From: a virus | Reading direction: 5' to 3' (one strand) | IMG/VR virus record: IMGVR_UViG_3300043775_000777 | Span: 26,683 to 90,682 of that record | DNA: 64,000 bases | Shown here: one piece after another, positions 30,614 through 47,213 of the stretch | Layout of the letters: each line of letters opens with the position of its first letter | Numbering within the stretch: position 1 is the first letter of the stretch | Translations under genes and position numbers: made by a program | Notes under the pieces: generated by a model | What the model was told of the DNA's origin: nothing | What the model saw: the letters and a program-made list of their open reading frames with translations, nothing else | Database searches by the model: none

Positions 30614-30889
30614 TTAAATTAATTCTAAATCTGCTTCTTGAAAATGTTCTGCTTCTATTGCTTCTAAAGTAACATAAGGTGCAAATCTATCCGCACTGTA
30701 ATACTCATAAGGAAATGATTGTTCTGATAGTTGTACTTCTTTCAATCTATAACCATATCTATTTTGTTGTAGACTCATTCTGGCTACTTCAACTACAGTA
30801 TATACCTTACCTTCTTCTAACCATTCATATGATGATATTCTTTTAGGTTTATTACGGCTATCAATGCAAATCACCTGCATATTCTTCAA
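30614..30889 (-). CDS. Hypothetical protein
   Basis: 91-aa ORF (VICID...LEEGKVYTV). Confidence 0.65.
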   Translation of the reverse strand: MKNMQVICIDSRNKPKRISSYEWLEEGKVYTVVEVARMSLQQNRYGYRLKEVQLSEQSFPYEYYSADRFAPYVTLEAIEAEHFQEADLELI

Positions 30890-31115
30890 TTTCTGATTTA
30901 ATGTCTAGATCATCAAATTTATTCTTTAATTCAAACATTTCCAAGAAATCTCCTGATTTAACTGGACATTTTCCTTTATTGTGTGCTATGACCGCACATT
31001 GCTCAGCTTGAATAGGCTCATGTTTACAGAACCTAATCAAGCTAGCCATGATATACTGATAAGAATTTACATCATCATTGTAAATAACTACTCTGTGTGT
31101 TTTGTGCTCTTCCAT
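30861..31115 (-). CDS. clpS: ClpS-like N-degron adaptor
   Basis: VVIYNDDVNS and AHNKGK motifs retain the N-D-D and H residues that bind the substrate N-terminus; likely start MEEHKT. Confidence 0.85.
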   Translation of the reverse strand: MEEHKTHRVVIYNDDVNSYQYIMASLIRFCKHEPIQAEQCAVIAHNKGKCPVKSGDFLEMFELKNKFDDLDIKSEIEEYAGDLH

Positions 31116-42544: not shown

Positions 42545-42835
42545 ATATACTGTCTTCTCTGTGTGTGTGGTTGGTGTGCTGCCTCGGTTGTCTCAGCACC
42601 CTCCCCCCTCTGTGTCATAGTCTTCTGCTTAGCTTTTGCATCTGTTGTCTCTGCTTTGTTCTGTCTCTGCTAGCATCCACACACTTTTCCTGTGTCAGAG
42701 TTTTTTAGATTTTTTCCTAGATTCAGGCTTGCTCCCTCAGCTTCATAGGGGGTATGCCACTTTTTTTCAGAGCCCCGGGGGTTTTTGCTATATGCCCCAT
42801 CTCACACTCTTATATACTACAACTTAATTATCTTA
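42545..42835. other. Non-coding strand-switch region with strong base skew; possible genome end or packaging region
   Basis: The + strand is A-poor and CT/GT-rich with G/C runs (GGGGGT, CCCCGGGGG); it separates leftward from rightward transcription. Confidence 0.4.
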
Positions 42836-42841
42836 AAAAAA

Positions 42842-42872
42842 TTTGGTATGTTTAGAATTATGTATATATTTG
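42842..42872 (+). promoter_or_regulatory. Bacteroidota sigma70-type promoter
   Basis: TTTG (42842-45), 19-nt spacer, TATATTTG (42865-72). Further intergenic TATATTTG copies at 43133, 44452, 44548, 45868 and 53629. Confidence 0.75.
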
Positions 42873-42874
42873 TT

Positions 42875-43115
42875 GAGCTAATAACTTTCATTTTAGGATT
42901 AATACTAAAAGCCCCGGAGCTACAGTCTGGGGTTTTTTAATAAGTGTGCCCCCCTGTGTTGAGATAGACATAGGCCAAGTTCCAGACAGCATACCGTAAG
43001 ATCTGCTCACTACACTGGACTTTTTGGTTACTGGGAAAGCATGGTACCAACATGTATAACTAGTAACAACCCCAGATAAGTTTCTCTGATCAAGAAATAC
43101 TGTCTGGGTTTTTTT
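42875..43115 (+). ncRNA. Candidate structured small RNA(s)
   Basis: Downstream of the promoter with no ORF; stems 42977/43022, 43027/43067 and 43071/43108, with U-tracts at ~42935 and 43109-15. Confidence 0.4.
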
Positions 43116-43123
43116 GTATATTA
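43112..43123 (+). promoter_or_regulatory. TTTTGTATATTA putative late promoter (copy 1 of 4)
   Basis: Exact copies at 46170, 50651 and 61682, each at the head of an operon. Confidence 0.6.
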
Positions 43124-43145
43124 GATATTGTATATATTTGTAGAT

Positions 43146-43589
43146 ATGAAAAAGTATGACATGGGTAAGTATGTGCTCCTGGCCGGGGAAGATGCTACCA
43201 AGATATTTGACTACTATGATGTAGATGAGATGCACGGGTTGAACAGAAAAGATGCTCAGGCAGAAGAAGTAGATAAGACTGTAGGCAACGGGGTTTATAT
43301 TTATGGGTGGACTAACTATGACCCAGCAGATAAGAAGCTTACTGCTAAGAAGCCTTATCTCCCGTTTCTGTTTATTAACCTAGGTACATTTAAGAGGTAC
43401 TCTATTACAGAGAAAGCTACCGCAGTTATGCATGAGACTATGCATATGGCTTTGTTACTTAATAACTGGAATGTCAAGGATAAAGAAGAAGAGGTTATTA
43501 CTTATGCTGAAGATGAAGCTAACAAGATTATTGATAAGCTAGGGTTTGATAAGAAGGAGCAACCTAAAAAAGGGTTCTTCAAAAAATGA
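43146..43589 (+). CDS. HExxH zinc metallopeptidase-like protein
   Basis: AVMHETMH followed by EEVITYAE; likely start MKKYDM. Confidence 0.6.
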   Translation: MKKYDMGKYVLLAGEDATKIFDYYDVDEMHGLNRKDAQAEEVDKTVGNGVYIYGWTNYDPADKKLTAKKPYLPFLFINLGTFKRYSITEKATAVMHETMHMALLLNNWNVKDKEEEVITYAEDEANKIIDKLGFDKKEQPKKGFFKK

Positions 43590-44260
43590 AAGTATACTTT
43601 GATCATGTCCAAGGCTTTGGCAAAGTAAGTGACCTGGAGTTAATTATCAACTGTGCATATGGAATATTAGAACCTAATGAATCTCCCACAGATGCATTAC
43701 TACAAGGATGGATACCGTGGGAGGGTAAGTGGTATAATGAGCGCAGTACTAGAATTAATTTAGCTAAATATAGACCATCTAAGACTACTAAGAAGTTATC
43801 CAAAAAGATTATAGTAGAAGCTGGAAATATTGATGTATCATTAGAACAGTACACAGAACTATACAACAAATACTGTCAGCATCATGGCTTCAAAAGAGAT
43901 ATCAAGCTAGAGTCATTCAAGGATTGTTCTGTTATAGAGTATCAAACAGATGAGCTTGTTGGTATTAGTTTATACAAACAGTTTGATACACAGTTTGTGG
44001 CATATCAGTTTATATGGGATTATGCAGATCCTAAACTTTCTCTAGGTACAGTAGCTCAGATGATGGAGTGTGAAACTGCAAAGCTTCTGAACTGTGAGTA
44101 TGTTTATCTACTTGGTGGGTATGAGCAGTGCTGTAAGTATAAAGCTAACTACCCGGGGTTTGAATTCTGGACAGGTGCAGAGTGGTCTACTGATATAGAA
44201 CTTTATAACACTCTAGTAGATAGAGATGAAAGAATAAAGATTGAGAACTATGATGTATGA
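43586..44260 (+). CDS. Ate1/Bpt-like aminoacyl-tRNA--protein transferase
   Basis: LLQGW, RSTRI, YxKY, WDYxDPKLSLG, AKxxxCEYVYL and C.KYK, matching ATE_N/ATE_C patterns. Confidence 0.75.
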   Translation: MKVYFDHVQGFGKVSDLELIINCAYGILEPNESPTDALLQGWIPWEGKWYNERSTRINLAKYRPSKTTKKLSKKIIVEAGNIDVSLEQYTELYNKYCQHHGFKRDIKLESFKDCSVIEYQTDELVGISLYKQFDTQFVAYQFIWDYADPKLSLGTVAQMMECETAKLLNCEYVYLLGGYEQCCKYKANYPGFEFWTGAEWSTDIELYNTLVDRDERIKIENYDV

Positions 44261-44447
44261 ACCAACTAATAGGATAGAGGTAAACACACCTAAAGGTTCT
44301 GGGATCATATGGATCATTACTGACTATGGGCATGAGACGGATACTATCTATACTGTGATTATTACAGCCACCGGAGAGTTCTGGCAGTTTACTCACAAAG
44401 ACATCCGTGCAAAAAATAATTTAACTTATGGTAGAGATATAAAATAA
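44241..44447 (+). CDS. Hypothetical protein
   Basis: V.TPKGxG...W.F pattern; 68 aa. Confidence 0.6.
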   Translation: MRTMMYEPTNRIEVNTPKGSGIIWIITDYGHETDTIYTVIITATGEFWQFTHKDIRAKNNLTYGRDIK

Positions 44448-44498
44448 GTTGTATATTTGTACTAGTTCATAACTGAAAATTTAATTAATTGTGCTGAG

Positions 44499-44526
44499 AA
44501 CCCTGGAAATTTTTTCTGGGGTTTTT
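44499..44526 (+). terminator. Intrinsic terminator
   Basis: ACCCTGG...CTGGGGT plus U-tract. Confidence 0.55.
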
Positions 44527-44604
44527 AGTTTAAATTAAAATAGTTTATATATTTGTGTCACCAACAAACCATGAGAGCAATAACTCCTAATTATTTATTT
44601 ACTA

Positions 44605-44910
44605 ATGACTGCCCAGCAAAAGCTGTTGTGGGAAAAGCTAACTGAAGAAGTTAGAGATACCGGCATGGATAACCTCCGTGCCCGGGAGCTCTATGATGAA
44701 CTAAGTAAATTATTAAATATGTCAGATAAAACATTGATATCTATTACAGAAAAAGAAAAAGGCCTAGAGGTTAGACTACATGAAGAAGCCTATGGTAATC
44801 TAGCTCTTATAGGTTTATTAGAAAAGATCAAGTTGAATATCTTAGATTCTCTTCCTGAAGATAAAGAACCAGAAACTAAACCTAGTGCTAAACAAAAATA
44901 TGACGCGTAA
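44605..44910 (+). CDS. Hypothetical protein
   Basis: 101-aa ORF after TATATTTG at 44548. Confidence 0.6.
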   Translation: MTAQQKLLWEKLTEEVRDTGMDNLRARELYDELSKLLNMSDKTLISITEKEKGLEVRLHEEAYGNLALIGLLEKIKLNILDSLPEDKEPETKPSAKQKYDA

Positions 44911-44929
44911 CAAATTAAAACCAAATACA

Positions 44930-45217
44930 ATGAGTGAAGAAAAACCAACTTATGCAATGCCGGAGAATAACCCGGAGATTATTGAACACAAGATTGTTCC
45001 TTTTGGACATCAGTTGATGGGATTAGATCCAGATAATCTAGATGATACTACAGTAACTAAAGTAAAGTTACTAGCAGCAGAAATGGCTGAGATCTTAAAG
45101 ACAGATTATGAGAATGAAAGAGGGCCCTTGAAAAGCTTACTCTTTGATCATGCATTAGGAGAGATATTAAATGCATCTATGTCAGTAGTAAAAGTTTTAA
45201 CACTAAAGAATAAGTAA
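44930..45217 (+). CDS. Acb2/Tad1-like helical-hairpin protein (divergent)
   Basis: FG...GL...DDxxVxKVK...A...AxxExxNAxMxVVKxLT pattern. Confidence 0.5.
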   Translation: MSEEKPTYAMPENNPEIIEHKIVPFGHQLMGLDPDNLDDTTVTKVKLLAAEMAEILKTDYENERGPLKSLLFDHALGEILNASMSVVKVLTLKNK

Positions 45218-45510
45218 TGTCAACATTTAAAAAACTAAGAGGCCGGGCTATATTGCTTAATGTGCCGCAGAGAAAGAAGTCAGTTATTGAACTGTCTGCA
45301 AAAGATGAAGAAGCTATGATGCAGGAAGCAGCCAAGCTTTGGAGTAAACTTACTGTATATGCTATAGGAGATAAAGTAGAAGAAGTAGCTGTAGGTGATG
45401 AAGTATATGTTAGAACAGGAGCTCTAAACATGGAGACTGTAGAGAGAATAGAGATTGATGGTGAGATTAAACTTCTCCTTAATGAAGGTGATGTTGTTAT
45501 AATCTGGTAG
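45217..45510 (+). CDS. GroES/Cpn10-like co-chaperonin
   Basis: KLRGRAILL...VYAIGxxVxxVxVGDEV...EGDV pattern. Confidence 0.75.
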   Translation: MSTFKKLRGRAILLNVPQRKKSVIELSAKDEEAMMQEAAKLWSKLTVYAIGDKVEEVAVGDEVYVRTGALNMETVERIEIDGEIKLLLNEGDVVIIW

Positions 45511-45512
45511 TC

Positions 45513-45857
45513 ATGGATAAAAATAAAACTCCGGTATCTCCTTATCCAACTATGACAGAAGGTATCTATGGGAATAACACTAGTATTGTTACATCTACAT
45601 TTGGAAATCCTAAAGATCTTTCTGACAGGGTAGTAAAACTATCTCCTGGACCTAGACCTGTATACTATGGCGGAGAGTCTAATCCTTATGAAGTATTTAA
45701 AGTATTAGAAGCATGGGGTCTGGATAGAGACTTCTATTTAGGTAACGTCATTAAATATGTAGTAAGAGCTGGTAAAAAGAATCCAGGAAAGTATAAAGAA
45801 GATCTAGAAAAAGCCATAGTATATCTCCAAAAGAGAATTGAAAGTTTGGATAAATAA
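45513..45857 (+). CDS. DUF3310 family protein
   Basis: YxG...FYLGNVIKYVxRAGKK...EDLEKAxxYL. Confidence 0.8.
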   Translation: MDKNKTPVSPYPTMTEGIYGNNTSIVTSTFGNPKDLSDRVVKLSPGPRPVYYGGESNPYEVFKVLEAWGLDRDFYLGNVIKYVVRAGKKNPGKYKEDLEKAIVYLQKRIESLDK

Positions 45858-46208: not shown

Positions 46209-47213
46209 ATGGATATTTTAAATTTTATTTCTTGGATAAGAGGACGCAGACAAGTAACATCTGTTGATCCGGCTAAATCTCTATTACCAGTTGGTCTTAA
46301 GGACGGTAGAAGAGATGATGAATACTTAGCAGGTGCTATATCAGTACAAGACTTTACAGCTCAAGTAGCTTCAGTAATTCCATCAGGTGCACAAGGACCG
46401 CAGGGTCCACAGGGTGTGCCCGGACCCGTTGGTCCAGCAGGACTAAATTGGCAGGGTGCATGGTCTGCTTCTGGTGTGTATGTTGTTGATGATGCTGTAG
46501 GATATGGTGGAGCATCTTGGTTTTGTATTGCTAACGTAGGACCTTCAGTAACTACACCTGACTTAGATCCAACTAACTGGGCACTATTGGCTTCTCAAGG
46601 AGCTACAGGACCACAAGGACCTCAAGGTATTCAAGGAATACAAGGACCATCTGGATCAGGATTACCAGGTACTATAACAAGTCAAACTCAATATTGGACG
46701 GGTACACAGTGGGCACCAACTATGGGACTATCAACTACTCCTTCAGCTACTCCAGGAGCTTCAAGAATTGGTATTGGAGGAAGTACTCCAAATACTAGCA
46801 GTTATGCATTAAACGTAATTACAAATGCTAATGGTTTAAGAACTGTTCAATCAAATAGTGGACTTGGAATTAGTAATCAAATGTCAAATACAGCTACATC
46901 ATTTAACTTTGGTGTAAACAATATTAGTGCTAACCCTTTAATTGATAGAGCTGCTTTCTTTAGTCATAATAGTACATTCCCAATTAAGTTTTCTCATAGT
47001 AGTACAGATAGATTAATCATACAAGGTAATGGTCAAGTAGTTATTGGTAACGGTTTTGCATTTTCTCTTGATGCTAATCTAGTTGTTAAAACCGGAGATA
47101 TAGAAACTGAAGAAGCAGGTAAAGGATTAATTCTTACATCATCACCAAGTGGTTTTAGATATAGAATAACTGTATCAGATCTTGGTGTATTAAGTACAAC
47201 TGCTGTACCATAA
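46209..47213 (+). CDS. Collagen-like fibre/adhesin
   Basis: Two Gly-X-Y tracts flanking a WQGAW...W carbohydrate-binding-like module; N-terminus shared with the next gene. Confidence 0.75.
   Translation: MDILNFISWIRGRRQVTSVDPAKSLLPVGLKDGRRDDEYLAGAISVQDFTAQVASVIPSGAQGPQGPQGVPGPVGPAGLNWQGAWSASGVYVVDDAVGYGGASWFCIANVGPSVTTPDLDPTNWALLASQGATGPQGPQGIQGIQGPSGSGLPGTITSQTQYWTGTQWAPTMGLSTTPSATPGASRIGIGGSTPNTSSYALNVITNANGLRTVQSNSGLGISNQMSNTATSFNFGVNNISANPLIDRAAFFSHNSTFPIKFSHSSTDRLIIQGNGQVVIGNGFAFSLDANLVVKTGDIETEEAGKGLILTSSPSGFRYRITVSDLGVLSTTAVP

Follow-up and report, generated by a model that had tools for sequence, protein, structure and literature searches.

The locus and its phage

The DNA analysed here, referred to below as the window, is a stretch of 64,000 nucleotides (bases 26683–90682) of the IMG/VR virus record IMGVR_UViG_3300043775_000777. 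We focus on a pair of overlapping genes at the head of its rightward arm, one encoding a homologue of the aminoacyl-tRNA transferases Bpt and ATE1 and the other a 65-residue protein that accompanies the transferase in nearly all loci where both could be judged. A gene with an HExxH motif lies directly upstream of this pair, and a gene for ClpS is located twelve kilobases away (Table 1). An initial annotation of the window had joined the HExxH protein, the transferase and ClpS into a single pathway as cutter, writer and reader of N-degrons. All three genes are real, as judged by 33 bits on Pfam ATE_C for the transferase, 49.5 bits on Pfam ClpS and an HExxH motif that is invariant among homologues.

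Table 1. Features of the window considered in this study
Feature	Coordinates	Strand	Basis
Virus-type ATE/Bpt-superfamily aminoacyl-tRNA transferase homologue, 224 residues, no cysteine cluster	43586..44260	+	Pfam ATE_C, fold, Tyr-Lys
65-residue partner gene, orf68	44250..44447	+	Overlaps transferase 3′ end by 11 nt; linkage
147-residue HExxH protein, probable small zincin-like metallopeptidase	43146..43589	+	HExxH motif, weak fold matches
ClpS core, 84 residues, no N-terminal extension	30861..31115	-	Pfam ClpS; nearly core to clade

The complete virus record is 115,433 bp long, with a CheckV completeness of 97%, and encodes, among other proteins, a DNA polymerase, the large terminase subunit and the portal. 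The last of these shares 34% identity with the portal of Leptolyngbya phage Lbo-JY46 and 22–28% with the portals of crAss-like and Cellulophaga phages, which makes the source, an uncultured freshwater phage, distantly crAss-like. Relatives are abundant, with at least 598 portal-bearing contigs in IMG/VR.

A virus-type member of the ATE/Bpt superfamily

Enzymes of the ATE1 and Bpt type take an amino acid from aminoacyl-tRNA and attach it to an amine of the acceptor. The 224-residue phage protein matches the GNAT-like Pfam family ATE_C with 33.3 bits (cut-off 25, E = 8.7e-8), and 36 of 48 diverse members of its own family do so as well. None of these 48 proteins matches ATE_N, and the window protein scores only 11.8 bits on Acetyltransf_6. 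An AlphaFold model built from 25 homologues is confident, with a predicted local distance difference test (pLDDT) of 83.8 and a predicted template modelling score (pTM) of 0.83. When Swiss-Prot structures are searched with this model, the best 30 matches are all bacterial Bpt proteins (TM-score 0.60–0.67, E-values down to 6e-12, 19–24% identity). Among solved structures in the PDB, ATE1 is found first (E = 2e-9), with the MprF C-domain, FemX and L/F-transferase next, and a sequence profile that includes cellular homologues matches ATE1 chains with E = 1.6e-15. The best match in BFVD is an uncharacterised protein of an uncultured phage. The assignment of the writer to this superfamily by the initial annotation is thus upheld, with a fold nearest to Bpt; of the two Pfam domains that it had named for checking, ATE_C is detected and ATE_N is not.

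The family is sizeable, comprising 177 clusters at 90% identity and 345 at 50%, and most members are 220–260 residues long. DNA and protein searches of the GenBank phage collection returned no relative of the transferase and none of the HExxH protein.

Functional residues were mapped using the klAte1 structure paper (PMC9351520) together with alignments to Saccharomyces cerevisiae ATE1. An invariant pair, Y185-K186, corresponds to Y303-K304 of klAte1, where K304 is a conserved active-site residue (PMC9351520), and aligns with the YK of the yeast enzyme; K186 is constant in all 48 diverse members and in the cellular homologues. Tyr50 is almost invariant and corresponds to klAte1 Tyr87, which belongs to the protein-acceptor pocket. 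The residues that select the acceptor in the cellular enzymes follow a different pattern. Arg80 of klAte1, the first arginine of GFRRSG, is essential for binding an acidic N-terminus, and the R80E substitution abolishes ATE1 activity (PMC9351520). In a tentative, motif-level alignment its place is taken by Ile43 of the window protein (G41-W42-I43-P44), and the family-wide sequence is GW[IL]P or GFLP; the profile places GWLP onto the GFRR of ATE1, in an alignment segment that is not significant alone. The zinc-binding cysteines (klAte1 C23, C26, C95 and C96) are likewise absent, in that no cysteine is conserved within the N-terminal 60 residues and the loop carrying the CC pair is deleted.

The aminoacyl pocket is of mixed character. 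Ser255, Ser273, Glu277 and Tyr289 of ATE1 correspond to Ala168, Ala185, Gln189 and Leu201 of Bpt (PMC9351520), and the phage residues Ala139, Ala157, Glu161 and Val173 resemble Bpt at three positions and ATE1 at the charged position. The similarity to bacterial Bpt, the Asp/Glu leucyltransferase built of ATE_N and ATE_C, extends to overall size (approximately 230–280 residues for Bpt), the ATE_C domain, the fold, the Tyr-Lys, SLG and R-[IV] motifs and the small or hydrophobic residues at three of the four donor-pocket positions. The phage enzyme differs from Bpt in its lack of an ATE_N match and of a cysteine cluster, in the Ile or Leu aligned (tentatively) to the arginine, in Glu161 for Bpt Gln189, and in its occurrence on phage contigs, almost always together with the 65-residue gene. 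On the NCBIfam arginyltransferase equivalogs (PRK01305 models) its best score is 32.3 bits, far below cut-offs of 170–358. With eukaryotic ATE1 (7TIF, 7WG1, 8E3S and 8TZV), its best match among solved structures, it shares Y303-K304 and an acidic residue at Glu277, but it has less than half the length, none of the zinc or iron–sulphur cysteines, no Arg80 equivalent in the tentative alignment, and Ala, Ala and Val in place of Ser255, Ser273 and Tyr289.

A third point of comparison is provided by Bpt-like proteins encoded on Bacteroidota chromosomes (L364, L366 and L368), the likely host phylum. These align with the phage enzyme from end to end (24% identity, E = 2e-7) and also lack the cysteine cluster, but they score 55–81 bits on ATE_C, retain the arginine in a G-[WFY]-x-R motif and occur in 14 of 201 genomes. 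Taken together, the family matches, the residue differences and the low equivalog scores identify the phage protein, as far as sequence and model can tell, as a true member of the ATE/Bpt superfamily that is not an equivalog of either Bpt or ATE1. The Bpt-type chemistry put forward by the initial annotation, transfer of Leu onto Asp or Glu, finds no support in a family with Ile or Leu tentatively aligned at the Arg80 position.

A 65-residue protein accompanies the transferase

The gene that overlaps the 3′ end of the transferase, designated orf68, was overlooked in the initial annotation. Its linkage to the transferase was assessed in 71 IMG/VR loci fetched via the transferase, 69 of which had room to judge. 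In 67 of the 69 the small gene lies directly downstream, and the overlap ranges from 4 to 11 nt across loci; in the remaining two, a divergent small-gene homologue sits on the opposite strand just upstream of a transferase that is 57% identical to that of the window. Overlapping homologues of orf68 also follow transferases with only 40% and 35% identity, on unrelated contigs from other phage backgrounds. In the reciprocal direction, 71 of 80 loci fetched via the small gene have the transferase directly upstream. The other nine do not, and in some of them the small gene stands alone. The dependence is thus asymmetric, in that a transferase lacking the small gene is hardly ever seen but the small gene can occur by itself.

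One of these nine loci (L380:1025-1501) has the small gene overlapped from upstream by a different protein of 158 residues with the motif HEVLH. A relationship of this protein to the HExxH protein of the window was considered and is unsupported, as hhalign shows no relation between the two.

Conservation of the 65-residue protein is very strong and extends to its N-terminus, M-[IM]-[YF]-E-P (M-M-Y-E-P in the window copy). It has no match in Pfam, PHROG or NCBIfam, and Atlas look-ups returned unnamed viral clusters only. The idea that it might be a fragment of phrog_3704 was rejected on an hhalign probability of <1%. A complex prediction for the transferase and the 65-residue protein gave a score of 0.01, which speaks neither for nor against binding. 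The two genes are probably co-translated. A freshwater metatranscriptome contig, 96.5% identical, covers positions 44164–44364 and hence the junction between them, which is weak evidence of transcription; other contig coverage from that run (one run, 5% word share) is confined to a short stretch near 42951–42984, too little to address operon structure or timing.

Distribution of the transferase, the HExxH gene and ClpS

If a cutter, a writer and a reader formed one pathway, as the initial annotation supposed, the three genes would be expected to travel together. We examined this in records that are at least 90% complete (n = 15). ClpS is present in 12 of the 15, in four of six with the transferase and in eight of nine without it; when records fetched through ClpS itself are left aside, the figures are 4/6 with and 5/6 without. 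ClpS thus comes close to being a core gene of the clade and shows no association with the transferase. The HExxH gene is similarly loose in its attachment. It lies directly upstream of the transferase in 36 of 62 transferase loci with upstream room, downstream of the small gene in three, and is absent from the locus in 20, and in the opposite direction only 7 of 80 loci fetched via the HExxH gene contain the transferase. Two complete genomes with both transferase and ClpS have no HExxH gene, and in another it is 58 kb from the transferase. Nearly every combination of the three genes is encountered among near-complete relatives.

An in-frame fusion in locus L021 (L021:493-1356) joins the first 43 residues of the HExxH protein to a full transferase, with the metallopeptidase-like part deleted. 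In the nearest relative of the window phage, whose ClpS is 98% and whose HExxH protein is 90% identical, the slot that separates the HExxH gene from the next conserved gene has a phrog_3704 gene in place of the cassette. The phrog_3704 proteins are 190–210 residues long, carry the PHROGs label 'ferredoxin' and match with E-values from 1e-53 to 1e-62 (L205:3448-4080 in the nearest relative and L283:828-1403). On a TARA contig, the distant transferase P0264 is directly followed by a phrog_3704 homologue.

The transferase gene is accessory and occupies a variable slot where the rightward arm starts. The HExxH protein and the phage ClpS are encoded by separate genes with distributions of their own and are not dedicated parts of a module. 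The companion of the transferase is the 65-residue protein, not the HExxH protein or ClpS, so the three-part pathway is not a conserved unit. The single complete pathway claimed initially does not survive the distribution test that its own proponent had named.

The HExxH protein

The TGA of the HExxH reading frame (43587–43589) overlaps the transferase ATG at 43586 in the sequence ATGA, an arrangement already described in the initial annotation and confirmed here. The motif itself reads H96-E97-T-M-H100 and falls inside a helix (residues 87–106) of a model with a pLDDT of 76. Sixteen homologues, one of them with 36% identity, all keep H96, E97, H100, E114, E115 and E122; the last three lie on the next helix as candidate third metal ligands. 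Known small zincins such as SprT-like proteins, Zincin_1 and Peptidase_M78/ImmA share this order of HExxH followed by a conserved Glu on the next helix. The fold matches are all weak, yet every named one is a zincin: a SprT-like protein at E = 0.03 and TM-score 0.47, and Zincin_1, PhageMetallopep, SprT-like and M78 proteins at TM-scores of 0.35–0.43. Language-model features point to M78 and SprT-like proteins at 0.86–0.88. The protein differs from the known zincins in having no profile match (none in Pfam or NCBIfam, and marginal ones only in PHROG), and PDB fold searches with the model gave nothing significant. A small zincin-like metallopeptidase is a plausible identity, which we hold with fair confidence on the basis of the motif and the model. 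The motif of the proposed cutter thus stands firm, and the name 'metallopeptidase' is carried by that motif and the weak fold matches.

Homologues of the HExxH protein form approximately 760 clusters. Another clade member encodes a 130-residue paralogue (L169:2970-3362; 36% identical, with the motif HELMH) in the leftward arm, approximately 1.3 kb downstream of ClpS.

A ClpS without its N-terminal extension

The phage ClpS clears the Pfam ClpS cut-off of 23 with 49.5 bits. A ClpS profile matches Escherichia coli ClpS chains with E = 4e-5 and aligns phage residue 6 with E. coli residue 27 (n to n+21); a profile is needed for this, as the sequence alone retrieves only spurious tetratricopeptide-repeat matches from the PDB. 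The start codon is the ATG at 31115, because the frame upstream contains stop codons in several relatives. Residues N13, D14, D15 and H45 of the window protein are the equivalents of E. coli N34, D35, D36 and H66, which bind the α-amino group of the N-degron. N13 and D14 are invariant among the phage homologues and D15 and H45 vary. The description of this gene in the initial annotation as a reader with an intact pocket is accurate for the window copy, with the caveat that the N-terminal extension is missing. E. coli ClpS needs this extension for delivery, that is, for the hand-off of its cargo to the unfoldase. Residues 1–25 of the E. coli protein have almost no counterpart in the phage protein, which begins at the equivalent of E. 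coli residue 22.

The closest cellular relatives are ClpS proteins of Bacteroidota (40–50% identity), with which the phage protein shares the ClpS fold family, the NDD...H pocket and a QAEQCA motif. It differs from them at both ends. The ClpS proteins of Paenimyroides (91 residues) and Chitinophaga (95 residues) have approximately 14 additional N-terminal residues, and the phage proteins share a short acidic or aromatic C-terminal tail, E-x-Y-x-x-x-[LM]-[HY] (window 30861–30900), that is not found in Paenimyroides or Chitinophaga ClpS and may be a docking or degradation tag. ClpS matches in the GenBank phage collection are limited to three uncultured megaphage records. ClpS and SprT-like peptidases have been noted previously in jumbo phages (Iyer et al. 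2021, PMC7824862), whereas the present example comes from a 115-kb crAss-like phage.

The probable host and its N-degron pathway

The host probably belongs to the Bacteroidota; the evidence comes from several lines, each of which falls short of firm. The closest cellular relatives of the phage ClpS come from Flavobacterium, Chitinophagaceae and Bacteroidales; TTTG and TAnnTTTG-like boxes are found where the rightward arm starts; and a related phage contig of 117.9 kb, which has both the transferase and ClpS, was binned in a metagenome-assembled genome (MAG) of a lake Chitinophagaceae (L284/L364/L365, genome G033). A separate contig of the same MAG carries a cellular Bpt-like gene (67.9 bits), a weak host hint.

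In a survey of 201 sampled Bacteroidota genomes, ClpS was found in 196, the L/F-transferase Aat in 182 and an ATE_C match above the cut-off in 14. No Clp_N domain, ClpP or Aat gene was found in the phage. With ClpS and Aat nearly universal in the host phylum and the phage lacking Clp_N, ClpP and Aat, a phage-written N-degron would therefore be readable by the host without the phage ClpS. In control searches, Bacteroides thetaiotaomicron gave matches to Clp_N and ClpP and none to ClpS or Aat, and the N-degron pathway may be absent from part of the Bacteroidota.

Promoter-like sequence and neighbouring genes

Upstream of the HExxH gene, positions 43113–43140 hold a TTTG box followed after 16 nt by TATATTTG, the end of which is 5 nt upstream of the ATG at 43146. 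This segment looks like a Bacteroidota-type promoter and would yield a nearly leaderless mRNA for the HExxH protein, the transferase and the 65-residue protein. No terminators were predicted within 42700–45300, and no tRNA genes were found in the window. Downstream, the region 45217–45857 contains a reading frame of 97 residues with weak similarity to the co-chaperonin GroES (phrog_3188, E = 0.0024), and the reading frame after it matches DUF3310 (38.5 bits). A 334-residue reading frame with collagen-like GPQGPQG repeats (46209–47213) lies just downstream in the rightward arm and probably encodes a fibre protein.

A two-gene cassette with a proposed role in tRNA-dependent aminoacylation

The transferase and orf68 form a two-gene accessory cassette. 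We consider it somewhat probable that its enzyme charges one or a few proteins with an amino acid at their N-terminus, that the 65-residue protein is involved, and that the products perhaps feed the host N-degron pathway. During infection, the transferase would take an amino acid from aminoacyl-tRNA and add it to the N-terminus of its one or few targets, following an acceptor rule unlike that of canonical Bpt and ATE1. The 65-residue protein could serve as the substrate, as a specificity factor or as a co-effector of the transferase. If the added residue were destabilizing, the tagged protein would be passed to the ClpS–Clp machinery of the host. We infer this mechanism from the family membership of the enzyme, its Tyr-Lys pair, the linkage to the 65-residue gene, the patchy presence of the cassette and its independence from the HExxH gene and ClpS, all of which are observed.

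Several considerations weigh against this interpretation. The family is found mainly on viral contigs and has no biochemically known member, and the scores on the arginyltransferase equivalogs are far below their cut-offs. Because the position of Arg80 appears to be occupied by Ile or Leu, the acceptor may be something other than Asp or Glu, or other than a protein N-terminus. The mixed donor pocket means that the transferred amino acid cannot be named. The 65-residue protein is not merely a subunit of the enzyme, since its gene occurs without the transferase in nine of 80 loci. Finally, the assignment of a host depends on ClpS similarity, promoter-like motifs and one MAG bin.

The apparent loss of the residue that recognizes an acidic N-terminus, together with the near-equal ranking of FemX, the MprF C-domain and L/F-transferase with ATE1 in the PDB fold search, would suit an enzyme that modifies a cell-wall precursor, a lipid or a small molecule, as FemX or MprF do with the same fold. 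We regard such a non-protein acceptor as rather improbable, however, as ATE_C, Bpt and ATE1 in particular head the sequence and fold matches, Acetyltransf_6 is barely matched, no cell-wall or lipid genes lie nearby, and the residue equivalent to klAte1 Tyr87, part of the protein-acceptor pocket, scarcely varies. A comparably small chance is given to the idea that the 65-residue protein is itself a working effector and the substrate of the enzyme, with N-terminal modification activating it, setting its lifetime or retargeting it. Such a role would account for the near-absence of transferases without the small gene, which can itself stand alone, and it agrees with the asymmetry of the linkage (67 of 69 loci plus two divergent copies, against 9 of 80 without the transferase), the overlap of 4–11 nt and the very strong conservation of the small protein through its N-terminus. 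Its N-terminus is not of a type known for ATE or Bpt substrates, though, and the complex prediction gave no verdict. A broader proposal is that, in phages of Bacteroidota, the transferase and the 65-residue protein perform a virus-specific, tRNA-dependent tagging of proteins with acceptors other than Asp or Glu. Host proteins (for example, defence or housekeeping proteins) or the partner itself would be marked for degradation via host ClpS and Aat or for altered function, and the ClpS lacking its N-terminal arm would separately retune the pathway. We view this as unlikely, if less so than the two preceding alternatives.

The remaining explanations concern the HExxH protein and ClpS. In the pathway proposed initially, the HExxH protein cuts chosen proteins, the new Asp or Glu N-terminus receives a destabilizing residue from the transferase, and the phage ClpS carries the product to Clp. 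All three homologues do occur in one genome, the HExxH gene overlaps the transferase at ATGA and directly adjoins it in more than half of the loci with upstream room, and the window ClpS keeps the residues that bind the α-amino group. Against these stand the independent assortment of the three genes among near-complete genomes, the rarity of the transferase in HExxH loci, the L021 fusion in which the transferase is kept and most of the HExxH gene lost, the missing Arg80 equivalent (with its tentative alignment), the missing ClpS extension and the putative nature of the protease activity, and we accord this one dedicated pathway very little likelihood. An explanation for the ClpS gene on its own is that the protein is a decoy or blocker that occupies N-degrons, the N-domain of the Clp ATPase or both, and thereby shields proteins from the host N-degron pathway. 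We rate this as a tentative possibility, short of an even chance. The protein begins at the equivalent of E. coli residue 22 and is approximately 14 residues shorter than its Paenimyroides and Chitinophaga counterparts, the start is confirmed by upstream stops in relatives, and the gene is nearly core to the clade with or without the transferase. Against a blocking role, the requirement for extension length is known only for E. coli ClpS–ClpA, with ClpS of Bacteroidota and its partner ATPase uncharacterised; the conserved acidic C-terminal tail could provide another mode of docking; and Iyer et al. (2021, PMC7824862) read the jumbo-phage ClpS as a delivery adaptor.

Implications

To our knowledge, Bpt, ATE1 and Aat are the only writers of N-degrons that draw on charged tRNA, and all are cellular. 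Our literature searches found no paper describing phage homologues of ATE or Bpt or a cassette of transferase and 65-residue gene. The presence of a cutter, a writer and a reader in one genome does not amount to a system, and this negative result matters as well. In the phage family, with its 345 clusters at 50% identity, the metal site and apparently the selector for acidic N-termini are gone, the catalytic core is retained and a small, near-constant partner has been added. If active, the enzyme would offer a naturally minimal scaffold for aminoacylating proteins from charged tRNA with another specificity, relevant to phage–host conflict, to proteostasis in Bacteroidota (whose N-degron pathway is unstudied) and to tools for N-terminal labelling. 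Were the reading as virus-specific tagging true, it would be the first case of a virus using aminoacyl-tRNA as a reagent to modify proteins.

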